NCBI GenBank assembly: GCA_050015375.1
Contig: JBEKBN010000003.1
Location: 16,127 to 80,126 of the forward strand
Length of the DNA: 64,000 nt
Origin: Minisyncoccia bacterium
GTDB lineage: Bacteria; Patescibacteriota; Minisyncoccia; 2-02-FULL-40-12; IGHO2-01-FULL-4-A
Direction: 5' to 3'
The notes beneath the pieces were generated by a model. That model was not told where the DNA came from. It ran no database searches and saw nothing but the letters and a program-made list of their open reading frames with translations. Shown here piece by piece: positions 4,047 to 64,000 of this stretch; positions within the stretch are counted from its first letter, which is position 1; each line of letters begins with the position of its first letter. Both the position numbers and the translations under genes were made by a program.

Positions 4047-5888
4047 ATGCCCAGATTACAGAAAAATGCCGTCAAGGATGAGGTCAATATTCAAAACCAG
4101 ACCAATGGCAGTTTTGTAGTTCCTGACGAGCCGGAGATTCCCGTTCAAGAAGAGTTTTATCAAATGCCGACAAGGTTCGGCAATGTGCCGGTAGATAAAG
4201 CTCCTCTTGGCTGGGATGAGCAAAGAAGATTTGAGAAAGTTTATCCCAGGGTCTCGCTGCCTTTTCAGCAAATTGAGAGGGTCTCTTTTGGTCATCCGGA
4301 GCTTGAACCAAACAAGCTTTTTTTTGGTGATAATTTACATGTAATGCGAATGTTGCCATCCAAGTCAATTGACCTTATTTATATTGACCCGCCGTTTTTC
4401 TCTGGCCGAAATTACAACATCCTCTATGGCGATAAAAATGAGCTTCGTTCTTTCAGAGATATTTGGGAGGGCGGTATGCCTGGCTATTTGATTTGGCTTA
4501 ATGCTCGGCTGTTCGAGATGAAGCGATTACTTAAAGATACCGGCTCAATTTATGTTCATCTCGATTGGCACGCAAGCCATTATGTGAAAATGGAGATGGA
4601 TAAGATATTCGGATACGATAATTTTAGAAATGAAATAATCTGGCGTTATCGAACTGGCAATATTTCTAAAAAGCAATTCCAAAGAAAGCACGACGCAATA
4701 CTACTTTATTCAAAATCACAAGATTGGAAATATAATATCCAGATGCTCAAGGAATATTATGTTCAAGTATTTGGCCCAGATAAGAAGATAAGTTTCAAGA
4801 GTGCGGGCGAACAAGAAGATAAATATGGAAAGTTTAGGATGAGTCAGGTTGATGATGTATGGGATATTTCGGCCGTCTTTACACTAGGAAAGGAGCACAT
4901 TGGTTATCCGACACAAAAACCAGAAGCACTTTTAGAGCGAATCATTAACGCCTCTTCAGATAAGGGCGATGTTGTTGCTGACTTCTTTTGCGGCGGTGGC
5001 ACTACTGCGGTTGTTGCCCAAAGATTGGGACGAAAATGGATTACTTCAGATATTTCCCGTGTCGCCATAGCCATAACCGCTGACCGATTATCTAACGCCG
5101 TCGTGGAGGGAGACAAGGATGGACAAAGAAAAATACAGCAATCTTTAATTGATGAAATTCCAGATTTTGTTATCGAGCACTGGGGTATATATGAAATTCA
5201 AAAACTGGGCAAAATGAAGCCGTTACAATTCAGAAAGTTTATCATCGAAGCATATAATGGCCGTCCCGATACGACGTCTGACAATATACACGGATATAAA
5301 AATGGCGAACCGCTTTTTGTTGGAGACCCAGAGCCGGATGACCGAATTTCCAAAGAGGAAGTTGTTGCTTTTGCCAAAACAATTCTTACCAAAAAAGGCA
5401 TACATAGAGGCACTATGCTTGGCTGGGCTTTCAGTCCGGATGCCAGAGTTGTAGCCGAAAAATTAGCGGCCAGAGAAGGTATCACTTTGGATTTTGTGAA
5501 GCTCAATTTGATACCCATAGATTCACCGGAATTTAAGAGCCATATCACCGATAAAAACCCGTCTTATGTTGATTTGGTTTCATTCATTTTACCGCCTTTG
5601 ATTAGATTTGGTTTCCATAAAACCGGAGCTTTGAAATACGAGTTTGATGTTTCCGAATCAACCTCGATGAACTCCAATGGCAGGATAATCAATGTCCAGT
5701 GGGATTTTGATTATAGAAACCGATTTAGCTCAACTCATGGCTACTCGTTTTTACGAGGTAAAAAGAATGAGTCTTTATTGAAAACAGAATACACTTTTTC
5801 ATCGGCTGGCAAGAGGAAAATAGCTTGCAGAGTTCAAGATGACTTGGGCGGTGAAGCAACCTTAATAAAAGAAATTGATGTTGAATAA
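4047..5888 (+). CDS. mod: Type III restriction-modification methyltransferase (Mod), beta-class N6A/N4C MTase
   Basis: Motif IV DLIYIDPPF lies N-terminal to motif I FFCGGGTTAV. The large region between the motifs is a probable TRD. The res-like helicase gene follows immediately. Confidence 0.8.
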   Translation: MPRLQKNAVKDEVNIQNQTNGSFVVPDEPEIPVQEEFYQMPTRFGNVPVDKAPLGWDEQRRFEKVYPRVSLPFQQIERVSFGHPELEPNKLFFGDNLHVMRMLPSKSIDLIYIDPPFFSGRNYNILYGDKNELRSFRDIWEGGMPGYLIWLNARLFEMKRLLKDTGSIYVHLDWHASHYVKMEMDKIFGYDNFRNEIIWRYRTGNISKKQFQRKHDAILLYSKSQDWKYNIQMLKEYYVQVFGPDKKISFKSAGEQEDKYGKFRMSQVDDVWDISAVFTLGKEHIGYPTQKPEALLERIINASSDKGDVVADFFCGGGTTAVVAQRLGRKWITSDISRVAIAITADRLSNAVVEGDKDGQRKIQQSLIDEIPDFVIEHWGIYEIQKLGKMKPLQFRKFIIEAYNGRPDTTSDNIHGYKNGEPLFVGDPEPDDRISKEEVVAFAKTILTKKGIHRGTMLGWAFSPDARVVAEKLAAREGITLDFVKLNLIPIDSPEFKSHITDKNPSYVDLVSFILPPLIRFGFHKTGALKYEFDVSESTSMNSNGRIINVQWDFDYRNRFSSTHGYSFLRGKKNESLLKTEYTFSSAGKRKIACRVQDDLGGEATLIKEIDVE

Positions 5889-5890
5889 AT

Positions 5891-7879
5891 ATGTTTAATT
5901 CATTTCTACCATACGAAAAACAATTCCGAACTTGGATTGATAACAAGTTCCAACACGAGAAAATCAAACCCGAAACTAGGGAGTTCATTTTGCATATCTT
6001 GAATCCGGAACGAGAAAGAAAGCTTTGGCCAAATCAACAGGAAGGAATTTTGCGGGCAATTTTTGCGTATGAGGTTCTCGGTAAGAAAACCCTGTTGCTC
6101 AACATAGTTACCGGTGGCGGTAAAACAGCAATCATTGCCGGTGTCATTGCTTGGCTTCGGATGGCTCATCAGATAAGACATTTCATCATCCTTAACCCGA
6201 ATGTAATCGTCAGGGACAGATTAGAGCAGGACTTTAGAAAGGCAAAGATTTTCAGAGATTTTAAGTTTTTCCCAGCCGTTTATTCAAATCTATTAGACGA
6301 CTTGGATTTGCATATTCTTGGCGACAAACAAGCTCCGCAAGGCATGCTTGAATCTGGTGTCGTTTTGGGTAACATACAACAGCTCTATAGCAGAGGCGGT
6401 AAGGTTAGCCGTAACCTTGCCTACATAATGAATTTTCTTGGCGACTTGGCCGTTTTCAATGATGAGGCTCACAATACGCCGGCTCCGGAATATACGAATA
6501 TCTTGATGCAGTTGGCAAAGAAATCAAAGTTTCGTCTTGATACAACAGCAACGCCGGATAGAGCTGACAATCAAAACCCAGATTCAGAAATGATTTATGA
6601 ATATGGCATCCAAGATGCCCTGGCTGATGACCTCGTTAAATCTGTTGTTGTATATCAGCCGGACATAAGACGAGTTGAGCTTACTTATACAGATGTGGAT
6701 ACTGGCAAGAAAGCGAAGGTTGAAGAGATTGACTGGGATGAAATAGATAAAAGAGGTATCAGCGCAACTCAATGGGTTACAGATGATAAGCCGTTAAAAC
6801 AACAAATCAAAATAGCCATCCAAAGGCTGGACGAGCAAAAAGAGAGGGCCAAAGGACGATATAAACCGGTTCTGTTTGTTGTGGCTGTTTGTATCAGGGA
6901 TGCCAAAAATGTTGTGAGTGTCATGGAAAAGAAATTTGGCCTAAAAACCCTCTTGGTTACAGAGGAATCCGAAGAAGCACAGAGGAGAGAGGCGGCTCAC
7001 ATTGGCCATCTGGATAGCCCCTACGATGCTGTGGTAAGCGTTTTAATGCTCCGTGAGGGTTGGGATGTGCCTCAAGTATCGGTTATCATATTATTGCGTA
7101 AATTCTCATCACGGGTCTACGGCCAACAGGTAATTGGCAGAGGTTTACGGAAGGTCATCAGAGAGGGCGATGAGCGGGAGATATTGGCGGTTGTTGACCA
7201 TCCAAAACTTGAACACGGCTGGTTGTGGAAATTGGTTGGAGCGAGAATTAAAAAGGATGTATCGGTTGATGATAAATTTGATGTTGAAGAAGATTTGCCG
7301 GAGAGACAACAGAAACAAGAGCTGATTGACCCAGATAAACTGATTGAGGTTCCGGAACTTGAAGGCGAAATTGAACCGAATTTTGATGATTTGTTGCAAG
7401 AGATAAAAGAAGTTCCGGTTACTGAAGATTGGCCAAAGATACTCGATGCTGTAGTTTATCCGAGAAACAAGGTTGAGATTACTGGTCTGAAATTACGAGG
7501 CATCAGAAAAATGGATTTGGGTGGTAAGCAATATGTTGAATACGAACCAACGGAAGATGAAGAAGAAAAAACAATCGAAACACAAGAACAGGAAACAACA
7601 TATTCACTCGATGACTTGCGGGAAGAACTGAAGGAAGAAGTTTTAGAACTTGGCTCTGAATTGCTTTTCATGATGGGTTTCGGTTCAATTTACAAAGAGC
7701 TACTTTACAACACGATAATGAATCACATTGATAAAAGATTATTTAATGGAAAGACACTCGGTTTAGCAGAACAAAAAGATTTGGAATTTGCTTTGTATAA
7801 ATTACCGGAAATAAGACGGGTATTTATGAGGCCTGGTTTAGTGCCGAGTATCATCCGTTATCCCAATGCAACAGAGTGA
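5891..7879 (+). CDS. res: Type III restriction enzyme Res subunit, SF2 helicase part
   Basis: Walker A VTGGGKTAIIAG, DEAH box FNDEAHN and motif VI QQVIGRGLR. Starts 3 nt after the mod stop. Lacks the C-terminal nuclease domain (see next ORF). Confidence 0.75.
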   Translation: MFNSFLPYEKQFRTWIDNKFQHEKIKPETREFILHILNPERERKLWPNQQEGILRAIFAYEVLGKKTLLLNIVTGGGKTAIIAGVIAWLRMAHQIRHFIILNPNVIVRDRLEQDFRKAKIFRDFKFFPAVYSNLLDDLDLHILGDKQAPQGMLESGVVLGNIQQLYSRGGKVSRNLAYIMNFLGDLAVFNDEAHNTPAPEYTNILMQLAKKSKFRLDTTATPDRADNQNPDSEMIYEYGIQDALADDLVKSVVVYQPDIRRVELTYTDVDTGKKAKVEEIDWDEIDKRGISATQWVTDDKPLKQQIKIAIQRLDEQKERAKGRYKPVLFVVAVCIRDAKNVVSVMEKKFGLKTLLVTEESEEAQRREAAHIGHLDSPYDAVVSVLMLREGWDVPQVSVIILLRKFSSRVYGQQVIGRGLRKVIREGDEREILAVVDHPKLEHGWLWKLVGARIKKDVSVDDKFDVEEDLPERQQKQELIDPDKLIEVPELEGEIEPNFDDLLQEIKEVPVTEDWPKILDAVVYPRNKVEITGLKLRGIRKMDLGGKQYVEYEPTEDEEEKTIETQEQETTYSLDDLREELKEEVLELGSELLFMMGFGSIYKELLYNTIMNHIDKRLFNGKTLGLAEQKDLEFALYKLPEIRRVFMRPGLVPSIIRYPNATE

Positions 7880-8213
7880 ACACGGCGTATTTGAACACCC
7901 AACAAAAAGTCCTTTCTCGCTGGAAAAATATGATTCTCGCTGGGAGCGGGAATATATGGATGAGCTGGAGTTATATTCTGATGTCGCTAAATGGACTAAA
8001 AGCCACAACATCAGGATTCCTTATGTGGACGATGCGGGATATAGGAAATTCTTTGAACCGGATTTCTTGGTTGAAAAAATTGACGGCACAAAGGAAATTC
8101 ATGAGATTAAAGGTAGCCATTTAATGAACCGAGAAACCGAATTGAAAGTGAATGCGGCCAAGCTGTTTTGCGAGGCAAGAAATATGAAATTTCGCCTGAT
8201 TACAAAGCAATGA
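7866..8213 (+). CDS. PD-(D/E)xK nuclease domain ORF, probable detached or frameshifted C-terminal endonuclease part of Res
   Basis: 115-aa ORF overlapping the res end by 14 nt in another frame. It contains VDDAG...EPDFLVEKIDGTKEIHEIKG (PD...EIK). Confidence 0.5.
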   Translation: MQQSEHGVFEHPTKSPFSLEKYDSRWEREYMDELELYSDVAKWTKSHNIRIPYVDDAGYRKFFEPDFLVEKIDGTKEIHEIKGSHLMNRETELKVNAAKLFCEARNMKFRLITKQ

Positions 8214-17904: not shown

Positions 17905-18530
17905 ATACAATCTTAACATCTTTGGTTTTTCTAGCATCTTTCGTTTTAGTCGAAGCAATTCAGCGAAAAACCAAATTAGAAAACGAATATTCCAGAAAAA
18001 TAGTTCATATAACCTCTGCGATTATCGTTTTTTTAATGCCTTATTATTTGAATCGCCTCGACATTATCGGGTTATCATTATTTTTCATCATTTTTTTATT
18101 AGTAACCAAGAAGTTAGGTTTTTTACAAAGCATTCACAGAGTCGGGCGGCACAGTCTGGGAGAAATATATTTTCCGCTTGGAGTTGGTTTAACAGCTTTT
18201 TTCTTTCTGCCGAATAACATTATTTCATTTCAGTTCGGCTTTTTAATTCTGGGGTTTTCAGATGCCATCGGGGGTCTAGTAGGATACTCACTCGGTAATC
18301 GTAAAACAATATTGCTTGGAAACAAAAGCATTGAGGGAACTGCCACCTTTTTCCTGACAACATTTCTGATATTTATATTTTTCATTTACTCAAAAACGAG
18401 CACAAATCTAATCTCTGCCTTTCCTGTTGTCTTGTTGATCACCCTTACAGAACTTATATTTACTGGCGGTTTAGATAATCTCTTCTTGCCAATTTTATCA
18501 GCAGTCCTTATTAAAGTGCTATTGAGTTGA
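17901..18530 (+). CDS. CTP_transf_1 (CdsA/CarS/dolichol-phytol kinase) superfamily membrane protein
   Basis: GYSLGNRKTILLGNKSIEGTATFF resembles the KxSxEGTxA motif of polyprenol/phytol kinases. About 6 TM helices. 4-nt overlap with the upstream gene. Confidence 0.4.
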   Translation: MNTILTSLVFLASFVLVEAIQRKTKLENEYSRKIVHITSAIIVFLMPYYLNRLDIIGLSLFFIIFLLVTKKLGFLQSIHRVGRHSLGEIYFPLGVGLTAFFFLPNNIISFQFGFLILGFSDAIGGLVGYSLGNRKTILLGNKSIEGTATFFLTTFLIFIFFIYSKTSTNLISAFPVVLLITLTELIFTGGLDNLFLPILSAVLIKVLLS

Positions 18531-20009
18531 TCGGGTAACTATGAACTTTTTCAAATATATCTTCCTGTCCTTTATAAATATCTCATCTTTCAGGCAAGAC
18601 AGCAGCTCTCTCTTCTCCTCTCGCGATCCTTCCTTGAGGATATACTTAGCATAGTTTTTTATATTCACTTCATTGATATTCGCTTCATTCTGATACTTCT
18701 GTCCAAGGACATTACCTATAAATTGCCGGTGTCGTGCCAGTTCTCTTTCAAGCTTCTCTTTCGCTCCGATCTTATCTATCGAAATTTCATCAATTAATTC
18801 CAGGAGCTGGCCGACCAGCTCCTCTTCACGTATGTATTTCTGTCCGCAATATTTGTCGTGGTATTTAGTACAGTGATAATAAATATATTTGGTTATACCT
18901 CCGTTAGCCAGCTTTTTATACTTCTCCGTTGCCGTGATGCCTGATCCGCAAGCTCCGCATTTGAATATTCTTACAAAATTAAATTCTTTTGTTCCCGGTC
19001 TTAACTTCGGAGTGGCTACTATTGCTGTCTGAACCTTGTTGAACAGATCCTGATCTATAATTGGCTCATGGGAACCGTTATAGAATATTCCGCTTCCTTC
19101 AGGATATTCGAACTTACCATAATAATAGTGGCGCTTAAGAGTGCAGTAAATCATACTGAGGGTTATTCTCTTTCCGGTTCGTGTCCTAAAGCTTGTTTCA
19201 TTATTAAGCCAGGCAAGTAAATCCCGTCCGCTGTATCCCTGATATGCGACCTTTTCGAACATCTGTTTTATAAACGGCGCTCTTATCGGGTCCAAAATAA
19301 CTATTTTCTGTCCCTTTTTTGCTGTTGTATCGTGTATATAGCCCAATGGAGGAACTCCCGGCCGCCAGCCCATTTCGCATTTGGTTCGCAATCCGCGTTT
19401 CACATTCTCGCCTTTGTGGTCGTTCTCCAGTTTCGCTTGTGAACACAAGATCATAAGAAGGAACTTCTCGTTCGGTGAATTAGTGAATCGCTGACCATGC
19501 GTCCGAATTTCTTTCAGGACCCCAGCATCCATAAGGTCAACAACTTTACCCAGATCTCCGGCATTTCTTGATATACGGCTCGGATCCCAGGCAATGATGC
19601 CATCGAACTTTCCGTTTCCGATATCTTTTAATAATTCATTGAAGACCGGCCGTAAGCCAGAATCCTTTGCTGAATGGCTTTCCTGTTTAATCTCAGAGAC
19701 GGTCAAACCATCCCGATTTGCCATCTGGATCATCTCCTTTATCTGAGACTCAATAGAGAGCGCCTGACGCTCGTCCTGCTCGCTTGATTTGCGGGCATAG
19801 AGGCAATACCTCAAAGACCCCTTCAAAGTCTTGCGAAAGATGGTTAGAGACCTGCTTGGGGAGCTTACAAAACAAAACAACCCAGTTGGGTTGTTTTGTT
19901 TTGTAAGATTCCGTCGGGGAGAAAGCCGACTTCTCGGCTTTCGTTCGGACTCGAAGGGCGCAAACGATATTTTTTCAGCAGAAAAAATCGTGCGCCCGTG
20001 GTCAGACAA
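18519..20009 (-). CDS. large serine recombinase (true start probably near 19821, not 20009)
   Basis: Catalytic LRYCLYARKSSEQDERQ, resolvase core, and a large C-terminal recombinase domain with a Zn-ribbon-like CGACGSG...CTKYHDKYC. The ORF-track start is a TTG at 20009, and the ORF reads through a 44-bp palindrome. A TTG giving MKGSLRYCLY lies just downstream of the palindrome. Confidence 0.85.
   Translation of the reverse strand: MSDHGRTIFSAEKISFAPFESERKPRSRLSPRRNLTKQNNPTGLFCFVSSPSRSLTIFRKTLKGSLRYCLYARKSSEQDERQALSIESQIKEMIQMANRDGLTVSEIKQESHSAKDSGLRPVFNELLKDIGNGKFDGIIAWDPSRISRNAGDLGKVVDLMDAGVLKEIRTHGQRFTNSPNEKFLLMILCSQAKLENDHKGENVKRGLRTKCEMGWRPGVPPLGYIHDTTAKKGQKIVILDPIRAPFIKQMFEKVAYQGYSGRDLLAWLNNETSFRTRTGKRITLSMIYCTLKRHYYYGKFEYPEGSGIFYNGSHEPIIDQDLFNKVQTAIVATPKLRPGTKEFNFVRIFKCGACGSGITATEKYKKLANGGITKYIYYHCTKYHDKYCGQKYIREEELVGQLLELIDEISIDKIGAKEKLERELARHRQFIGNVLGQKYQNEANINEVNIKNYAKYILKEGSREEKRELLSCLKDEIFIKDRKIYLKKFIVTRSTQ
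19864..19907. repeat. 44-bp element: perfect 21-bp inverted repeats flanking a central non-palindromic GT (candidate serine-recombinase crossover/att or res site)
   Basis: cttacaaaacaaaacaaccca GT tgggttgttttgttttgtaag. Located immediately 5' of the recombinase catalytic domain coding region. Confidence 0.6.
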
Positions 20010-26363: not shown

Positions 26364-26960
26364 ATGAATTCTCTCTCATCTTTTTTCTTTTTCTCGTGGC
26401 TTCTCAAATATCGTTATCTGGCGATCTTTCCGATAGCGGTTTTTGAAGGGCCGATCTTGACGGTCATTGTCGGTTTTTTGGCTTCGCTGGGCATTTTTAA
26501 TTTGCTCATTTCCTATACGGTCATTGTCCTTGGCGATCTGACCGGAGATTCATTACACTATGCCGTCGGCCGCTATGGCGGCAGAAAATTCATTGAAAAA
26601 TGGGGCCGTTACGTCGGCTTGTCTTTTGAAAAGATCGAGCCGATCGAAAGACAATTTGAAAAAAGAGGCAATACGTTGCTCTTTTGGGGTAAAGCCATGC
26701 ACGGTCTTGGCGGCGCTTTTCTCATTGCTGCCGGTTTGATCCACATGCCGTTCAGAAAATTCATTCTTTCTAATTTTTGGCCGACGCTTCTTAAGTCGGC
26801 GATTCTATTGATGGTCGGCTTCTTTTTCGGCCAATCCATCACCCACATCAAATCGATCTTGGATTTCATAGCTTACGCCGTTGCCGGTGCTGTCGCTCTG
26901 GCTGTGGCAATTTATTTTTTCTATGTCCGAGGCAAAACAAAAACCGATGAACTCAAATGA
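26364..26960 (+). CDS. DedA / SNARE-associated (TVP38) family membrane protein
   Basis: FPIAVFEGP...GRYGGRKFIEKWGRY typical DedA blocks. Confidence 0.65.
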   Translation: MNSLSSFFFFSWLLKYRYLAIFPIAVFEGPILTVIVGFLASLGIFNLLISYTVIVLGDLTGDSLHYAVGRYGGRKFIEKWGRYVGLSFEKIEPIERQFEKRGNTLLFWGKAMHGLGGAFLIAAGLIHMPFRKFILSNFWPTLLKSAILLMVGFFFGQSITHIKSILDFIAYAVAGAVALAVAIYFFYVRGKTKTDELK

Positions 26961-27816
26961 TTTGAAATTCGTCGAAACGGGAAAGGGGAGGATATATTAT
27001 AAATTTATTGCGGGCGCGATTTCGCGCTCGCGCGAAATCGCGCCCGCGGCCGAGCCAATTTTCGCGAAACCGACTCTCATTTTTCTCCATGGCCTTTCGG
27101 CTAATCATACGACCTGGACGGCGGTTGCGGAACAATTCAACCGCCTGGGCTACGATTGTTTATTGCCCGATATGCGCGGACACGGATACTCTGACAAGAC
27201 AAAATCCCGCTCGCTCTACCATCTGCCGGTTTTCGCCGATGACCTTGACCTGATTTTTAAAAAAGAAAACCTTTCGGAAGTTGTTTTGATCGGCTATTCT
27301 TTCGGCGGTTCAGTAGCGCTCCGGTACGCTGTTGATCATCCCGGATCGGTCAAAAATTTAGTCCTCATCAGCACTAATTTCGTCAGCCCGCTGGATTATC
27401 ACGGTCTTGGTTTTTTGAACTTTTTGGCCTATACTTTTGTGAACGGTTTTGCTTGGTCAATGTTTTGGCAAGGCCGCCGAAATTACTATTATTACGACCA
27501 TGCCACCGCCAAGGGTTATTGGCACAGCACATTCACAGGTTGGACGGCAATGCCCGTTTGCGTCAATCATTGGCTCTTAGCCGAATTGTTAAAAGTCGAT
27601 TTTTCCGCCGATCTGGGAAAAATCAAATGTCCGGTCTTGATCGTCCGCGGCGGCAACGACCCGTTCCTGACCAAAAAAGAAGCCGTGAAAATGGCGGAGG
27701 GCATTTCCAGTTCGAAGCTCGTCCAGCTTGATGACTCCAGCCACTTCCTGGCTTCAAAAAATCAAGAGCAAATTTTCCAAGTTATCAGCGGATATCTTAA
27801 CGAACAAAAAAAATGA
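26947..27816 (+). CDS. alpha/beta hydrolase
   Basis: LIFLHGLSANHTTW, GYSFGG (GxSxG) and a C-terminal His region. The track start at 26881 is probably an upstream extension, so MNSNDLKF at 26947 was used. Confidence 0.65.
   Translation: MNSNDLKFVETGKGRIYYKFIAGAISRSREIAPAAEPIFAKPTLIFLHGLSANHTTWTAVAEQFNRLGYDCLLPDMRGHGYSDKTKSRSLYHLPVFADDLDLIFKKENLSEVVLIGYSFGGSVALRYAVDHPGSVKNLVLISTNFVSPLDYHGLGFLNFLAYTFVNGFAWSMFWQGRRNYYYYDHATAKGYWHSTFTGWTAMPVCVNHWLLAELLKVDFSADLGKIKCPVLIVRGGNDPFLTKKEAVKMAEGISSSKLVQLDDSSHFLASKNQEQIFQVISGYLNEQKK
27010..27047. repeat. 38-nt GC-rich perfect palindrome inside the hydrolase CDS
   Basis: gcgggcgcgatttcgcgc tc gcgcgaaatcgcgcccgc, in frame, encoding AISRSREIAPA. Confidence 0.8.
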
Positions 27817-35702: not shown

Positions 35703-35872
35703 GACGGATGATACCTCCTATCACCACTTGAATCCCCAGCGAGGATTCTACGTTCTCTCGAAGTTTGTGGATTCTGGCGAGAGAAAAAATGATTATTGAA
35801 ATATTATATCATTTTTTCTCTCGCCAGACCGTGCAATCCACAACTTCGAGAGTGCTAGGAAGTATCATCCGT
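35703..35872. repeat. intergenic imperfect-palindrome element, copy 1 (family with conserved CCCAGCGAG and GACCGTGCAATCCACAA bulges)
   Basis: Arms gacggatgatac/gtatcatccgtc. ~90% identical to copy 2, with compensatory stem changes. Confidence 0.8.
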
Positions 35873-36669
35873 CAAGCCCTATCGTTATTTGCAAATCTAG
35901 TACTCATTCTAGTATATTTTTCCAAATATTTCACTTGACGATTTGTTAATATCTCGCAGGGCTGGTCCCAGTGGATCGAAATCATGTCTCCTGGCTTCAC
36001 CTCTTCCATAAAATCGTCATGCAATTTCCGGTGAATGATTTTGTCATATTCTGACCCGAAAGTAAAACCGGCAGGTTCAGAAAAAACCAGTGACTGAGTT
36101 TTTACGGTTAGCGCCGGCCCGTCAATTTTGATGATTTTTCCCCAGCTAACTCGGCAATGGTCGACATCGTCATAAGTTTTCAGTTCCATGAAATCCTGTT
36201 TTTTCTTCCAAATGTTATAAACATGAAAAGTGTGGTGCATTCTTGCCCCCACACCAAACAAGGATTGTTTGAACCCTGCGCTTGAAGCGCTTATCCTTGT
36301 TTGGTGTGGGGGTGAACCCCCTAGTTTATCTCTTAATATTTTAAATTCCTTTGGGCTTAATTTTTTATCAACTTGTGTCTCGATCAAGTGTTCATAAAAA
36401 TTTTTTTTGCCGATATTTTCCAGAAGTTCATTGCCCAGCCAGTATGCCTCAACAACTTTGTCGTCAAAGGGGTCTTTGATCTTATTGGCTTCGGCGATCT
36501 TTTGTAAATACGGATACATGGTTTTGAATTGTTTTAATAATAAAACCAATCCCTTGTCGGGACTTTGTTCGGTGATGTAACTCAAAACTTCTTTATTCGC
36601 TTCCGGCCCGCAAAGATGCAACCGGTTGGGTCCGAAAGCATAGCGGACGCAGCGCTGGAGGCCGTCCAT
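35872..36669 (-). CDS. hypothetical protein with an in-frame palindromic insertion
   Basis: 265-aa ORF. The 36246-36312 palindrome encodes ...GSPPHQTRISASSAGFKQSLFGVG... Confidence 0.4.
   Translation of the reverse strand: MDGLQRCVRYAFGPNRLHLCGPEANKEVLSYITEQSPDKGLVLLLKQFKTMYPYLQKIAEANKIKDPFDDKVVEAYWLGNELLENIGKKNFYEHLIETQVDKKLSPKEFKILRDKLGGSPPHQTRISASSAGFKQSLFGVGARMHHTFHVYNIWKKKQDFMELKTYDDVDHCRVSWGKIIKIDGPALTVKTQSLVFSEPAGFTFGSEYDKIIHRKLHDDFMEEVKPGDMISIHWDQPCEILTNRQVKYLEKYTRMSTRFANNDRA
36246..36312. repeat. GC-rich perfect inverted repeat (20-bp arms cccccacaccaaacaaggat / atccttgtttggtgtggggg) inside a CDS
   Basis: Arms are exact reverse complements. The spacer contains gcgcttgaagcgc. Confidence 0.8.
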
Positions 36670-39545: not shown

Positions 39546-39695
39546 TCTTCCCATCACCACTTGAATCCCCAGCGAGGATTCTGCGTTCCCTTGAAGATTG
39601 TGGATTCTGTCGAGAGAAAAAATGATTATGAAATATTATATCATTTTTTCTCTCGACAGACCGTGCAATCCACAACTTCAAGGGTGCTGGGAAGA
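39546..39695. repeat. intergenic imperfect-palindrome element, copy 2
   Basis: Same conserved bulges as copy 1. Stem differences are compensatory (tctgtcgagag/ctctcgacaga versus tctggcgagag/ctctcgccaga). Confidence 0.8.
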
Positions 39696-39701
39696 CATTA
39701 T

Positions 39702-41009
39702 TTATTTTTTCGCAAAAAAATGCGGGGTTTGGTCACCGACAAACGCTTTCGGCTGGGAAGTTTTTTCAGAAAAATTAGGATTGAGATTGATGGGCGACAT
39801 TTGGCGGAGTTTTCGGACGACTAACGGCAATTTTTTCAAGACATAATCAACATCGGCAATCGTTGTATATTTTCCGAGAGTGAAACGGACACTACCGTGG
39901 GCGAATTCATAAGGCCGGCCGAGGGCCGTCAAAATATGCGACGGCTCCAGCAATTGGGAATTGCAAGCCGAACCGGTGTTGACGATGATATTTTCTTTAT
40001 CCAGATACAAAACTGCCGCTTCGCCTTCAATGTCTAAAATGGAAACATTCAAAAAATTCGGCAGGCGATTTGTCGGATGGCCGTTCAAAATGACTTTCTG
40101 AATTTTGGAGAAAATACCCATGGTCAATCGGTCACGAAGTTTGGCAACTCGGGCGCACTCGGAATCTTTTTCATTGTGAACGAGCCACAGCGCCTCGCCA
40201 AAGCCGACAATACCGGGAACATTTTCAGTGCCGGAACGTACTCCGCTTTGCTGACCGCCGCCGAAAATTATTGGCCGGATCACCGTTCCTCTCCTTATAT
40301 ATAAACCGCCGATGCCCTTGGGTCCGCAAATCTTGTGAGCCGAAAGAGTCAACAAGTCAACGCCCAGTTTTTGAACATCCAGATCAAGATAACCGGCGAT
40401 CTGCGAAGCATCGGTATGAAAATATGGAATTCGTGATTCATGATTCATGATTCGTGATTCTCTGGTAGTTTTTACTAGTTTGGCGATCGGTTGGATCGTG
40501 CCGGTTTCATTATCGGCTGAAGTTATTGAGATCAAAATCGTCTTTTCATCGATCAATTTTGCCAGATCTTCCGGGTAAATTAACCCATCGGGTCTAACCT
40601 TAACTTCGACAATTTCAAAACCTTCTCTGGCAAGCTGTTCCGCGGCGGCAATGATGCCTTTATGCTCAATGTTGGAAATAATTATTTTGTTGCCATATTT
40701 TTTGTTGGCGCGGGCAGTTCCCAGAATCGCCAAATTATCAGCTTCGGTCGCCGAACCGGTGAAAACGAATTCACTTGCCCCCACACTCAAGGATTGAGTG
40801 TGGGGGTGAACCCGGCAATTCAAAACCGCTGAAATTTTATCAAGCGAATCATTGATGGCAATCTTTGAACGGTGGCCGAGAGCGTCAAGGTTGGAAGGAT
40901 TGCCGAAACTCTCGCTGAAGAACGGCATCATCAATTTCAAAACCTCCCGCCTGACCGGCGTCGTCGCGGCGCAGTCGAAATAATGGATGGATTGTCCTTT
41001 TCCCTTCAT
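39702..41009 (-). CDS. cysteine desulfurase (NifS/IscS class) with two short in-frame insertions
   Basis: PLP-Lys motif SAHKICGPKGIGGLYIRRG, class V aminotransferase fold. Insertions: the palindrome 40778-40806 (encoding HPHTQSLSVGAS) and the heptamer repeat 40433-40460 (encoding ESRIMNHESRI). Confidence 0.85.
   Translation of the reverse strand: MKGKGQSIHYFDCAATTPVRREVLKLMMPFFSESFGNPSNLDALGHRSKIAINDSLDKISAVLNCRVHPHTQSLSVGASEFVFTGSATEADNLAILGTARANKKYGNKIIISNIEHKGIIAAAEQLAREGFEIVEVKVRPDGLIYPEDLAKLIDEKTILISITSADNETGTIQPIAKLVKTTRESRIMNHESRIPYFHTDASQIAGYLDLDVQKLGVDLLTLSAHKICGPKGIGGLYIRRGTVIRPIIFGGGQQSGVRSGTENVPGIVGFGEALWLVHNEKDSECARVAKLRDRLTMGIFSKIQKVILNGHPTNRLPNFLNVSILDIEGEAAVLYLDKENIIVNTGSACNSQLLEPSHILTALGRPYEFAHGSVRFTLGKYTTIADVDYVLKKLPLVVRKLRQMSPINLNPNFSEKTSQPKAFVGDQTPHFFAKK
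40433..40460. repeat. 4 x 7-nt tandem repeat RTGATTC inside the cysteine desulfurase CDS
   Basis: gtgattc atgattc atgattc gtgattc. Confidence 0.8.
40778..40806. repeat. 29-nt GC-rich perfect palindrome cccccacactcaa-gga-ttgagtgtggggg inside the cysteine desulfurase CDS
   Basis: 13-bp exact arms. Confidence 0.85.
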
Positions 41010-48729: not shown

Positions 48730-48798
48730 GATAATATTTTTTTGCGACTAATTCAGTATATAAGAATTTTCGGAATGGTGAAGGGGATAAAGATTTTT

Positions 48799-48832
48799 GA
48801 GGGCCGCCCTCAAGCACTTGAGGGCGGCCCTC
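48799..48832. repeat. 34-nt GC-rich near-perfect palindrome (intergenic)
   Basis: gagggccgccctcaag-ca-cttgagggcggccctc. Confidence 0.8.
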
Positions 48833-48855
48833 GCCTATGTTATAATATTCACGTC

Positions 48856-50531
<1,676 letters not shown>

Positions 50532-51910: not shown

Positions 51911-52807
51911 TTACGATTGCTTAGAAAGTTCCTCAATTATCGACTCAAGATTTCCATCAAGTATTTTTGAAATGTTGCCCCAACTTTTTTTGACTCTGTG
52001 GTCGGTGATGCGGTCTTGGGGAAAATTGTAAGTTCTGATCTTCTCCGAACGGTCAGCGGTGCCGATCTGACGACGTCGCTCCGATGTCAGCGCGCCTTCC
52101 TCCTGATTTCTTTTTATATCTAACAACTTCGTCCGCAAAATTTCAAGAGCCCGTTCTTTGTTTCTGGCTTGGGATCTTTCCTCTTGAGAACTTACCACCA
52201 AACCTGACGGTTTGTGAACCAGCCGGACGGCAGTCGAGACCTTGTTGACATTTTGGCCGCCCGGGCCGCCGGAGCGGTAAAAAGAAATTTCAATGTCGTC
52301 GGGCTTGATCTCAATGTCGGTTTCTTTGGCTTTCGGCAAGACCGCCACCGAAACGGTGGAGGTGTGAACCCGGCCACCTTTCTCGGTATCGGGTATCCGT
52401 TGAACTCGGTGAACGCCGGATTCATATTTCATTTTTTCCAAAACGCCGTTGCCGCTAAGCTCGAAAACCATATTTTTGTAACCGCCAAGAGAAGATTGGC
52501 TATAATCCAAAATAGTCAAATGCCAACCCTGGATCGCGGCGTATTTTTTATACATTTCAAAAAGCGTTGCCCCGAATAATCCGGCTTCATCACCGCCGGC
52601 GCCGGCGCGGATCTCGACGATGGCTTCACTATAAATGGCGGCGCCCGACGGCGCGCCGTCGGGCGCCGCCAAAAGTCGTTCTATCTCGGCATATCTTTTT
52701 GACACTTCAGCCACCTTCTTATAATCTAAAACAAACCCAGGGTCGCTGAGCTGTTTCTGGATAGCGTCGAGTTCCTGTTTTAATTCCTCCTTGGAAGCCA
52801 TTGGCAT
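51911..52807 (-). CDS. prfA: peptide chain release factor 1 (short form, 298 aa)
   Basis: GGQ motif (SGGPGGQNVN) and a PxT-type tripeptide (RIPDTEKGGRVHTS). No SPF motif and no internal frameshift site. Confidence 0.75.
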   Translation of the reverse strand: MPMASKEELKQELDAIQKQLSDPGFVLDYKKVAEVSKRYAEIERLLAAPDGAPSGAAIYSEAIVEIRAGAGGDEAGLFGATLFEMYKKYAAIQGWHLTILDYSQSSLGGYKNMVFELSGNGVLEKMKYESGVHRVQRIPDTEKGGRVHTSTVSVAVLPKAKETDIEIKPDDIEISFYRSGGPGGQNVNKVSTAVRLVHKPSGLVVSSQEERSQARNKERALEILRTKLLDIKRNQEEGALTSERRRQIGTADRSEKIRTYNFPQDRITDHRVKKSWGNISKILDGNLESIIEELSKQS

Positions 52808-63100: not shown

Positions 63101-64000
63101 ACCGAGTCAAAGCCCCGACTGTATTTTCCGGAACCCATTCAATAAACTTTGACTCCGCTACCGCCTTGGCCAACGGCAATGCCATGATTACTTATCAAGA
63201 TATCCCCAATTCAACTCGCGGCACTTTTGTCATCTACGATTCAGCCGGCAATCAGATCAAAGCCCCGACCGTATTTTCCGGAAGTGATAGTGCGTATTTC
63301 GAATCTGCCACCACCTTGATCAATGGCAACATTCTGATCGCTTATCAAGATACCAGCAATTCAAATTATGGCACTTTTGTGATCTACGATTCAGCCGGTA
63401 ACCAGATCAAATCACCGACCGTATTTTCCGGAACTCATGAAGCTGACGCCAACTCCGCCGTCGCCTTAACTAACGGCAATGTCTTGATCGCTTATGAAGA
63501 TGCCGGCAATTCATATTATGGCACATTTGTAATTTATGATTCAGCCGGAAATCTTGTCAAAGCACCAACCGTGTTTGCCAGCGCGAATACATTTTGGGAC
63601 AAGTTATTCACCACCACCCTGACTAATGGCGATATTGCCATGGGTTATGGCACATACGCCGCCGGCGTGTCAAAAGAAAAATTCGTCATCTACGAAGGCA
63701 CCGGTTCATATTTTGCCCGCAACGTCGGCATCGGCACCACCACTCCCGCCACCCGTCTCCAAGTCGAAGGCACCGCCTCCGCCTCCTACCTCTTAACGGG
63801 TAATACCCTCCAAGTAGGCGGTTATTCCTCTGCCGCCTTTAATCGGTTTGGCACCGCTACCATAGCTCATTCCAACTATATGTCCTCTAACAACGATGTC
63901 ATGATAGGCGGCGACCTATATACCGTAGGTACCGTGTCTGCCAATATCGTCTCCGCCTCTGCCTTCTTTGGTCTGGGTCTACCCACAAGTGATTGCACCG
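57190..64000 (+). CDS. giant membrane-anchored surface protein (partial, >2270 aa, continues beyond window)
   Basis: A single frame with no stop from ATG 57190 to the window end. N-terminal excisionase/MerR-like HTH, about 450 aa of coiled coil, one TM helix (VFSVVIVIFLLVGGFSFGNF, near 58650-58720), then Gly/Thr/Asn-rich beta-helix-like sequence, two ~255-aa tail-fibre-like modules, and six to seven 50-aa tandem repeats. Confidence 0.8.
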   Translation, partial: MPKYFEEKKYISLQEASKLCSYSPEYLRLLARQKKIISKRIGRNWYTTEEAVQKYVAKQSLTIVIPKSVFTGTNGEEEQSAEIKLTSNGSETGQEVIKLVSEADLKDTIEKAKYEEEIKEKKTESILENIHADLANISEYNLSSRQELNEIKSGVKLQEKVAGDLGSISMSLEKLSELQNQQLSHIQRMEIEQIHSQKDKEIPEQIAISLAALSENLKQLSSIHDLQLKQVEMQKEMTDSKMAEMPKLIDVEKIQKSIDGTNERTEKILEKINQGLSGLMEKNNAERPVQIIEHETAPKVINVHYDTKSQDEIKESLDKITENLKQLSLIQNVQLKQIQLQQQSFDKAIIQNLELKQEQLQSQNAQPAVQPVASMLPQVFNPEFISERTDRILEKIYTSVDRLVQAQETQLLEKTIRPEPQIIQVQVPTPSTPAYRFQTPIYESTPPVVALPPKLEEFLDVQAGSIDYKLKKLDKEGKKIFSDRKKSMALVFSVVIVIFLLVGGFSFGNFNGIGMAIKGVFKNADTIQGHFAGTHPNEVLLLDANGNIAIAGHVETTAVQLDSTDGSAPIIVDQNFLKNLKGGTININGVDSGKFTLAFVTANGNVTYQDVKLEGNIEVGKTLMVKGATQLLASLTIAKGDLNIASGNLNLGTGTITTNNKTMVKNLNAEYLQGKTPADFVTGVANTVANTVAGSQTLDSVVTNGNSTSHTAFFNGGLYGGAGSFATLGVGGDVGLGKQSDPSSVTMTSYFKNFTLDSSGNSSFTGNVGVGGNLNISGTTTTQNLDVNGTADINIASVSAYFGNGMPTSDCSSVGQALLWNKITGKFSCGIAGTGSGGGWVTVKSGNTEVLASSSILNFNSGKFTATASGDSETLLNLNWGNGGPASRSQENTWTALNTFSNISMGTVVSGSWHGTAIGAQYGGTGLSAITNNQLLIGGPGDTIVQVATSSLGLIGDNDFTANGLMARTSAGAYTSRTITGTDNQIAVANGNGVSGNPTISLPSVVYLGSSGKLGRDANNLLDFSTDGQITFRANSTNEMVMNGTGLSVSGTLAAGATTLSGNLAMGGYKITGLAMPSASQEAATKGYVDAVAQGLQPKDAVRAATIENITLSGEQTVDTVSLVAGDRVLVKTQNDAATDGIYVVSAGAWSRSADADTSAKVTSGMYTFVVEGDKDIGNGYVLLTPNPIDLGVTPLTFTQFSGAGQIIAGNGLLKSDSNTIDVVGTANRIIAYPDSIDIAPTYVGQSSIATVGTLNSGSIIPGFGAINIGTEPLTAGVGSFSSITASSTLTVNSTATFNGNVGVSGTLSAATVALSGNLAMGNHYITGLASPLSAQDAATKGYVDALAQGLTVKDAVRVATTGDITLSGEQTIDGVAAVAGDRILVKNETDKKTNGIYVVSAGAWSRSADADTSAKVTSGMYTFVTDGTTQANTGWSLITPNPIALNTTPLDFTQFSGAAEIIAGNGLVKTGNTINVVGTADRIIANADSIDIAPTYVGQSSINTVGILNTGSITSGFGSINIGTKPLTAGIGSFSSVLSSGSGVFDSQLTAAYFTATSTTASSTFPYLEVSGRSKLGTVTGGTWNGSIVGVPYGGTGVSSFTTRGILYGNGTGNIAVTTAGTNGEVLMAGIGGLPSFVATASLGLLGSSITSSLTSNYIPKWTGSAFGNSLIYDNGTNVGIGTISPDSVLEIASNSAKFIIRSTGSNNSTLTFEPSNLGSASTNDGMFSVVASGGAGKDDLIIKNATNTNLVTVASTGFVGIGSPSSTFAKLDVAGTIRGQNFMTSGGSPVNDILLPQDVQNYSINSLKGTTGLDMADIHQKVAATDFTGNHESYNESATALANGNVLIAYEDGGNSWRGTFVIYDSAGNQIKSPTVFSGTHGVTPKSAITLTNGNILIAYEDGDNSNYGTFVIYDSAGNLVKAPTVFSGNHDTEFSSAVTLTNGNVLIVYGDADNSVYGTFVIYDSAGNRVKAPTVFSGTHSINFDSATALANGNAMITYQDIPNSTRGTFVIYDSAGNQIKAPTVFSGSDSAYFESATTLINGNILIAYQDTSNSNYGTFVIYDSAGNQIKSPTVFSGTHEADANSAVALTNGNVLIAYEDAGNSYYGTFVIYDSAGNLVKAPTVFASANTFWDKLFTTTLTNGDIAMGYGTYAAGVSKEKFVIYEGTGSYFARNVGIGTTTPATRLQVEGTASASYLLTGNTLQVGGYSSAAFNRFGTATIAHSNYMSSNNDVMIGGDLYTVGTVSANIVSASAFFGLGLPTSDCT
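60415..61840 (+). repeat. tandem duplication of a ~770-bp module inside the giant gene
   Basis: The two modules share KGYVDA.AQGL..KDAVR.AT...ITLSGEQT.D.V..VAGDR.LVK...D..T.GIYVVSAGAWSRSADADTSAKVTSGMYTFV. They contain a near-identical ~67-nt DNA stretch at 60627-60694 and 61393-61460. Confidence 0.8.
62704..63750 (+). repeat. 6 exact-period 150-bp (50-aa) tandem repeats plus a degenerate 7th, inside the giant gene
   Basis: Units SATALANGNVLIAYEDGGNSWRGTFVIYDSAGNQIKSPTVFSGTHGVTPK at 62704, 62854, 63004, 63154, 63304 and 63454. Confidence 0.85.

Follow-up and report, generated by a model that had tools for sequence, protein, structure and literature searches.

Within a 64,000-nucleotide stretch of the genome of an uncultivated Minisyncoccia bacterium (assembly GCA_050015375.1, 87-kb contig JBEKBN010000003.1, positions 16,127 to 80,126; the whole stretch is referred to here as the window), three GC-rich perfect palindromes with common termini lie in frame inside the genes for a DUF6390-family protein, a cysteine desulfurase, and the tRNA-guanine transglycosylase Tgt. 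[quoted passage not shown]

A preliminary description of this DNA had reported three related palindromes that lie inside coding sequences and keep the reading frame; the coordinates were confirmed, and each palindrome is read through, with no stop, inside a long open reading frame (ORF) that displays a strong Pfam match (Table 1). On the coding strand, the three copies share the layout GGTTCA-[C/T]CCCCACAC...GTGTGGGG[G/A]-CAAG, and the window contains the motifs CCCCACAC and GTGTGGGG three times each, exclusively as the pairs that delimit E1 to E3. Codon phases differ among the copies, E1 and E3 being read as G-S-(P/S)-P-H... and E2 as V-H-P-H-T...G-V-G-A. The inner stems of E1, E2, and E3 also vary, yet every stem is perfect, which indicates that the differences are compensated on both arms. 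The G+C content of the stems is 60-69%, as opposed to 33-52% across the window, in line with the contrast to host DNA that had been pointed out previously. Eight perfect hairpins (arms of 13 nt or more, loops no longer than 4 nt) are present in the window and none in each of 20 shuffled versions, a result that excludes an origin by chance. At the RNA level, predicted hairpin energies are -26.5 kcal/mol for E2, -28.1 for E3, and -47.6 for E1, with z scores between -4.4 and -7.2. Rfam yielded no match at E1, E2, or E3, either at the gathering threshold or at E <= 1, and no tRNA match was found at the three sites; the absence of such matches, together with the presence of a single pattern match per locus, and hence of no arrays, ruled out the derivation of GGTTCA... 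from a tRNA T-arm or a CRISPR repeat.

Alignment of the host proteins with their homologs indicates that the palindromes encode additional peptide segments. In both the desulfurase and Tgt, whose best homologs are 71-73% identical, the insert corresponds to 11 residues that fall in a gap in all 119 of the closest homologs; the inserts proposed initially thus stand, while their sizes, given as about 12 residues for the desulfurase and 10 for Tgt, both had to be corrected to a net 11. In the DUF6390 protein, 22-24 residues are missing from all 18 aligned homologs, and most of the best 150 library matches align as two stretches that skip residues ~120-140. None of the homologs in these three sets carries the same residues at these positions, as expected from the insertion originally put forward. 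Solved structures of IscS/NifS and of Tgt each display a clean 10-residue gap at the palindrome. E2 encodes part of the segment VHPHTQSLSVG, and SAVLNCRVHPHTQSLSVGASEFVFTGSATEADNLAILGTAR is an example of a peptide that spans an insert. In AlphaFold2 models built from homolog alignments, the desulfurase has a mean predicted local distance difference test score (pLDDT) of 88 that falls below 50 at insert residues 70-77, modeled as a coil between helix 43-63 and strand 81-84, and Tgt has a mean pLDDT of 87 that falls below 50 at residues 241-254, flanked by strand 233-237 and helix 253-266. The suggestion that the inserts be mapped onto structures therefore led to two low-confidence predicted loops, which would fit tolerated surface loops. 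Identical inserts are found in independent ENA, Logan, and JGI assemblies from this organism or one nearly identical to it (members of 90%-identity clusters), and are thus not an assembly artefact; the insert-bearing alleles include a desulfurase with four substitutions elsewhere and a Tgt with one. It is of note that Tgt also carries a second extra segment of ~26 residues (104-129) relative to solved Tgt structures, with low model confidence at 112-116. This segment is common to homologs from Patescibacteria and is thus a lineage-wide insert rather than a palindrome.

The search for further related palindromes, also proposed at the outset, revealed copies in many other genomes, the family being widespread among uncultivated bacteria. 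When one genome per species was scanned with the pattern GTTCANCCCCACACN{5,35}GTGTGGGG, 46 genomes proved to harbor the family termini CCCCCACACC...GGTGTGGGGG, with a chance expectation of ~8 (a rough estimate that supposes uniform composition). By taxonomic label, 21 of these loci belong to Patescibacteria lineages, eight to Planctomycetota, two to Omnitrophota, two to Bacteroidales (imperfect matches, probably due to chance), and one each to Saganbacteria, Margulisiibacteriota, Elusimicrobia, Gammaproteobacteria, and Syntrophobacter, the remaining eight being unclassified. A second scan, of metagenome contigs, employed the pattern CCCCACACCAAN{2,32}TTGGTGTGGGG, which leaves the flanks unconstrained, and matched at least 120 contigs, bringing the total over genomes and metagenomes to more than 160 copies. 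Most copies have terminal inverted repeats with perfect 13-14-bp arms (consensus CCCCCACACCAAA / TTTGGTGTGGGGG), and the bases left free by the scan pattern are likewise conserved, generating the consensus GTTCACCCCCACACCAAA-loop-TTTGGTGTGGGGG. Two or three copies can lie within a few kb of one another, as seen at loci L021, L022, L183, L196, L214, and L228; local density is high at L196, with two copies in one FtsZ-like ORF, and at L214 and L228, with three copies each.

Of the 57 well-flanked metagenome copies (at least 600 bp on either side, at loci below 50% G+C), 27 are located within ORFs of 100 aa or more. Enolase (L033), KsgA (L007), and MurC (L252) were confirmed as hosts by PDB matches. 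Additional in-frame hosts from the species scan look like DnaG (L021), PCMT (L022), PriA (L035), IleRS (L043), and TatD (L046), and the L027 copy looks, from its translation, to be antisense within TruA; host translations at the metagenome copies look like Der, XseA, Mfd, an FtsZ-like protein (two copies), enolase, SerRS, RtcA, RecJ, DprA, YbeY, LepA, and PolX. Searches of the literature by motif, peptide, and topic, with most subscription journals outside their scope, yielded no description of the element, and the family is apparently undescribed so far.

The manner in which the elements join their targets can be read from their flanks. For this purpose, flank and length statistics were drawn from 118 non-redundant metagenome copies among the matches listed, whose flanks are unbiased, the boundary of the element being drawn so as to take in the outermost C-G (sometimes T-A) pair of the palindrome. 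A length of 29 bp is the most frequent (33 copies), followed by 27 bp (19) and 28 bp (13), within a range of 26-56 bp that includes a 44-56-bp class with longer centers; E1 reaches 67 bp. Directly outside the C...G pair, an exact 4-bp direct repeat is present in 48 of the 118 copies, as against 9.8 on average and 19 at most when flank pairings are shuffled, and this excess marks a target-site duplication at the level of the family. In 26 further copies the repeat has one mismatch; a 5-bp repeat occurs once, and inverted flanks are at chance level. As many as 14 distinct repeat sequences, which follow the pattern YNNR (TAAA in 14 copies, TTTA in 13, TTGA in five, TATA in four, and others), flank the same core. 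Palindromic extension into the flanks, as well as a duplication of 2, 5, or 6 bp, were ruled out by a register scan.

This 4-bp step is also visible in proteins. In the cases that can be measured exactly by protein alignment, the net insertion equals the palindrome plus four bases: 29 nt give 33 nt (11 aa) in E2 and E3, 41 nt give 45 nt (a 15-aa gap) in the enolase, and 32 nt give 36 nt (a 12-aa gap) in KsgA. The MurC copy, with TTTA on both sides, is consistent with a 33-nt insertion. Since 29 bp plus 4 bp amount to 33 bases, or 11 codons, the gene stays in frame; moreover, the consensus is free of stops in six frames (PPHQRFWCG, PHTKDFGVG, PTPKILVWG, and the three frames of the opposite strand), and the addition of 33 bases without a stop in any frame suggests that insertions need not destroy genes. 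Lengths of the form 3n+2 account for 66 of the 118 copies (binomial p = 6e-7), and this bias, along with the six open frames, means that preservation of frame is mostly built into the element.

Taken as a mechanism, the MITE-like reading would involve an element composed of two 13-14-bp terminal inverted repeats joined by a 0-30-bp center, and mobilized in trans by an enzyme that probably acts on an extruded hairpin or cruciform, a substrate proposed on the grounds that the two ends of a 29-bp duplex cannot be bent together. The 4-bp direct repeat that typically flanks the copies (YNNR, mostly TAAA or TTTA) is the signature of a target that was cut in a staggered manner and then filled in. Insertions that reach tolerant loops would persist in gene-dense genomes and be translated, and the elements would be selfish passengers rather than functional modules.

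A number of observations weigh against this reading, some of which concern the flanks of the window copies themselves. E1, E2, and E3 have unmatched flanks, with TTCA on one side, CAAG on the other, and no duplication, and the same pair is present at nine or more other loci (L020, L021, L022, L029, L033, L037, L235, L275, and L283), five of which are labeled as metagenome-assembled genomes of Minisyncoccales, Staskawiczbacteria (three), and Saccharibacteria. In addition, E1 requires five extra bases rather than four, as 67 + 4 = 71 nt shifts the frame and 67 + 5 = 72 nt restores K-L-G-A-R-M-H-H. In the wider set, 70 of the 118 copies have no exact repeat. The share of 3n+2 lengths is 18 of 27 inside ORFs and 16 of 30 outside (p = 0.42, in a small sample), and nine of the 27 copies in ORFs do not satisfy (length + 4) mod 3 = 0. 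Every copy is a perfect palindrome despite differing inner stems, a state that the simple decay of a MITE would not produce. No empty-site allele turned up in the 90%-identity clusters, whose members all carry the inserts, and the nearest relatives are only ~72% identical. Concerning a source of mobility, no autonomous element or transposase with the family termini was found in the window, the fetched loci contained no lone termini 150-6000 bp apart that enclose a gene, but only pairs of complete small elements, and a BLAST search of the consensus against plasmids returned nothing meaningful.

The unmatched flanks can be dissected further at individual copies. Deletion of 40778-40810, which comprises E2 and the adjacent tetranucleotide, restores ...CRASEF..., with the length seen in all homologs and identity to homolog P0013 (ASEF) at this position; by comparison with these homologs, and by analogy with the L033 enolase, in which CAAG codes for conserved native residues, we infer that the CAAG beside E2 would be native target sequence. 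Removal of TTCA plus the palindrome from Tgt leaves EFGKDKK, which is present in two homologs; if CAAG at 50120-50123 rather than TTCA is taken as the added tetranucleotide, removal leaves EFGSDKK, also seen in homologs. In enolases, an alanine after a particular histidine is near-universal. Removal of TTCA plus the palindrome from the L033 enolase leaves GGAH-A-R-N, in which that alanine, present in the aligned human enolase, is kept, indicating that CAAG is native and that TTCA arrives with the element. TTCA is also paired with TAAA, TTTA, CAAA, and CATG in the set of 118 copies. These flanks suggest a subfamily, with E1 to E3 among its members, in which a fixed TTCA (GTTCA for E1) is carried in on one side in place of a second copy of the target. 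Models considered for such flanks include the replacement of 6 nt by 39 nt; the insertion of a 33-nt asymmetric master copy without duplication is possible, as is the ligation of donor-flank bases into the 4-nt gap in place of fill-in (donor-flank carry-over). A 2-bp duplication of 'CA' fails the frame test for E2.

Table 1. Palindromes E1 to E3, their host genes, and their immediate flanks (coordinates of the window)
Feature	Position	Strand	Description
E1	36246..36312	-	67-bp perfect palindrome, 20-nt arms, 27-nt center with its own small hairpin; in DUF6390 gene
E2	40778..40806	-	29-bp perfect palindrome CCCCCACACTCAAGGATTGAGTGTGGGGG, 13-nt arms; in cysteine desulfurase gene
E3	50091..50119	+	29-bp perfect palindrome TCCCCACACCCAGAATCTGGGTGTGGGGA, 14-nt arms; in tgt
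Host of E1	35872..36669	-	DUF6390-family protein, 265 aa; Pfam PF19927, 1.4e-45; 893 library homologs
Host of E2	39702..41009	-	IscS/NifS-like cysteine desulfurase, 435 aa; Pfam Aminotran_5, 9.7e-66; PDB cysteine desulfurases, 3e-102
Host of E3	49365..50531	+	tRNA-guanine transglycosylase Tgt, 388 aa; Pfam TGT, 1.3e-123; PDB Tgt, 4e-90
E1 flank	36313..36317	-	TGAAC on + strand, GTTCA on coding strand; from frame arithmetic
E2 extra bases	40807..40810	-	TGAA on + strand, TTCA on coding strand; with E2, 33-nt net insertion
E2 flank	40774..40777	-	CAAG on coding strand, CTTG on + strand
E3 flank	50087..50090	+	TTCA; with palindrome, 33-nt net insertion

Phages are not an evident vector of the family, given that the family-specific pattern produced only two matches in viral contigs, both of which are terminator-like. 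The looser pattern CCCCCACAC...GTGTGGGGG gave more than 120 viral matches, which were set aside as nearly all being phage terminator hairpins of the type AAAAAGG-stem-loop-stem-CCTTTTT; these have non-palindromic loops and none of the flanks of the family, and are convergent. Many phage contigs (L047-L166) carry the CCCCCACACC/GGTGTGGGGG stem as a bidirectional terminator between A-runs and T-runs, and these stems look independent in origin from the mobile family.

Other explanations for the palindromes can be weighed against these data. Repetitive extragenic palindromic (REP) sequences are, as a rule, extragenic; they show no target duplications and are associated with a RAYT gene. The present elements could be REP/REPIN-like or derived from IS200/IS605 hairpins, in which case an HUH (Y1) transposase would recognize a hairpin plus a tetranucleotide and insert without true duplication, the 'direct repeat' being the cleavage tetranucleotide, seen once in the left flank and again at the right end. 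The size (27-56 nt) and the lone GC-rich hairpin recall REPs, short hairpins of 20-40 nt that are also highly repeated, and the fixed TTCA that recurs beside the hairpin in the window subfamily is reminiscent of the GTAG of REPs; a hairpin substrate would, in addition, escape the bending problem of a 29-bp duplex, and perfect stems with compensatory changes suit the recognition of structure. However, 14 different 4-mers flank an identical core, whereas a guide sequence would tie the tetranucleotide to the element, and the HUH guide-sequence model is disfavored on these grounds. REPs are extragenic by definition, but about half of the copies described here are intragenic (all three in the window and 27 of the 57 well-flanked ones in metagenomes), and the 4-bp duplication is likewise foreign to REPs and REPINs. 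Neither a RAYT nor any other Y1 transposase gene was noticed among the annotated neighbors, for which no systematic search was made. A REP-like origin is thus an unlikely one. It is more doubtful still that the palindromes have been co-opted, either as mRNA hairpins that act in translation pausing or transcript stability or as PHTK..FGVG-type loops that serve the proteins. The RNA hairpins are very stable (-26 to -48 kcal/mol), paired changes keep the stems perfect, and the inserts are constant in strain variants that differ elsewhere, all of which would agree with a function; yet all three reading frames are employed (PPHQ..WCG, PHTK..GVG, and PTPK..VWG), host genes and positions are unrelated, the inserts are modeled as disordered loops, and approximately half of the copies lie outside ORFs.

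Two further possibilities are both highly improbable. The palindromes could have arisen locally, by template-switching during replication or by fold-back repair at each site, with no mobile element involved. Template switching does yield perfect palindromes, and other, unrelated perfect palindromes are present in ORFs of the window (at 27010, 48799, and 52636), but the recurrence of the same 9-13-nt termini in unrelated genes and phyla largely refutes a local origin. Furthermore, neither arm is native, the whole palindrome being extra in E2 and E3; the G+C content is far above that of the local sequence; and a 4-bp duplication is present. Alternatively, the segments could remain untranslated, through removal from the mRNA or bypass by the ribosome, as for the byps of Magnusiomyces mitochondria or T4 gene 60, and it is true that GC-rich hairpins within AT-richer coding sequence resemble byps. 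Nevertheless, net insertions are multiples of three in every measured case (33, 33, 72, 45, and 36 nt), and the inserts are stop-free with a consensus that is open in six frames, neither of which excised or bypassed DNA would need. Byps, together with the mobile GC clusters of yeast mitochondria, are 30-50-bp GC-rich palindromes, sometimes with short flanking direct repeats, that invade coding regions of AT-richer genomes; the ribosome skips byps, and these do not have to keep the reading frame. The elements described here differ from these organellar sequences in their bacterial host and in their frame-preserving, stop-free inserts.

The reading of the palindromes as MITE-like selfish elements also benefits from comparison with two known groups of bacterial repeats. 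The preliminary description had likened them to the Rickettsia palindromic elements (RPEs) that colonize ORFs, a likeness which is upheld in kind but does not extend to membership. According to PMC10969869, RPEs (Ogata et al. 2000) are palindromic selfish DNA found in frame in unrelated housekeeping genes of a small, gene-dense genome, and the extra peptide segments derived from them are thought to be compatible with the protein fold. The present elements show the same in-frame, stop-free insertion into unrelated conserved genes (desulfurase, Tgt, and DUF6390), with predicted translation, although no sequence relationship to RPEs would be expected. RPEs, however, measure ~100-150 bp (about 150 bp according to reviews), approximately five times the 29-bp mode observed here, and are confined to Rickettsia and its relatives, whereas the present family occurs in Patescibacteria, Planctomycetota, and others and is marked by a clear 4-bp target duplication. 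Length (29-67 bp) and a Minisyncoccia host thus set the window copies apart from RPEs. With bacterial MITEs, such as Correia/NEMIS, RUP, ERIC, and Nezha, the elements have in common terminal inverted repeats, target-site duplication, a lack of coding capacity, many dispersed copies, and presumed mobilization in trans. The arms of E1 to E3 (13-20 nt) exceed the minimum of about 10 bp for MITE terminal repeats, and three copies dispersed over three unrelated genes within 64 kb agree with MITE behavior; a target duplication of fixed length is found at the family level, but not in E1 to E3 themselves. Prokaryotic MITEs are 50-800 bp long and ~90% intergenic (PMC11602168). Most of the present elements fall outside this size range, with 29 bp made up of two abutted inverted repeats, and, in contrast to the mostly intergenic location of described MITEs, about half of the copies lie inside ORFs; no parent insertion sequence is known. 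The closest analog in behavior is the RPE, and the closest in architecture is the MITE, and the family fits best among MITE/RPE-like selfish DNA, as a new and ultra-short form of it.

The surroundings of E1 to E3 present additional features. A 38-nt perfect GC-rich palindrome, GCGGGCGCGATTTCGCGC TC GCGCGAAATCGCGCCCGC, lies at 27010-27047 in an alpha/beta-hydrolase ORF (26881-27816, + strand); it is unrelated in sequence to the CCCCACAC family and is translated as AGAISRSREIAPA, a segment just upstream of the hydrolase domain. Near the 5' end of a Gmad2-domain ORF (48742-49359, + strand), positions 48799-48832 form the perfect 34-nt palindrome GAGGGCCGCCCTCAAG CA CTTGAGGGCGGCCCTC, which is read through as EGRPQALEGGPR. 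The RF1 gene (51911-52807, - strand) contains a 36-nt perfect, loopless palindrome at 52636-52671, within a hypervariable linker rich in Ser, Gly, and Pro; that it might represent another insertion was ruled out by the linker being of the same length in 119 homologs. The contig also has the GC-rich perfect palindrome TGAGGGGTGGCGA TTTCG TCGCCACCCCTCA, which lies between called genes some 5 kb outside the window on its left side (L287, 17355-17385). Two copies of a ~95-nt AT-rich intergenic hairpin repeat are found at 35758-35850 and 39583-39683, each just 3' of a palindrome-bearing gene (DUF6390 and desulfurase, respectively); they are 88% identical over 122 alignment columns and ~94% over ~100 shared columns, with one compensatory change on both arms, and may represent a repeat akin to a terminator or another small mobile family. 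Side by side at 4047-8213 lie an N6/N4 DNA methylase, a ResIII helicase, and a small TnsA-like endonuclease ORF, which adjoin a low-GC stretch (8-18 kb, 33-37% G+C), and a large serine recombinase is encoded at 18519-20009; this region may be a mobile or defense island. Finally, a single ORF of more than 2275 codons, corresponding to a giant protein gene, extends from 57175 to position 64000 and runs past the end of the window.

In its widest form, which is put forward tentatively, the proposal is that these palindromes represent a previously undescribed, cross-phylum family, and the smallest bacterial transposable elements known: two abutted 13-bp inverted repeats that form a 29-bp unit, which genes could survive by construction, which would have seeded loops of 10-15 residues in core enzymes of Patescibacteria and further uncultivated phyla, and which would be moved by an enzyme that acts on hairpin DNA, the fixed TTCA reflecting an unusual integration chemistry such as donor-flank carry-over. 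The existence of a 29-bp element with a clean 4-bp duplication evokes the question of which enzyme moves it, and whether it does so on a hairpin. The elements lie below the 50-bp lower bound for prokaryotic MITEs (PMC11602168), and by virtue of this size they have probably been missed by standard repeat surveys. Their recognizable termini allow presence or absence to serve in metagenomes as a marker of strains and lineages, and the inserts can mislead alignments and phylogenies. In the radiation of ultra-small bacteria, the family has time and again supplied essential enzymes, including enolase, Tgt, IscS, MurC, and aminoacyl-tRNA synthetases, with new, predicted surface loops, and may explain some of the unexplained insertions in their proteins.

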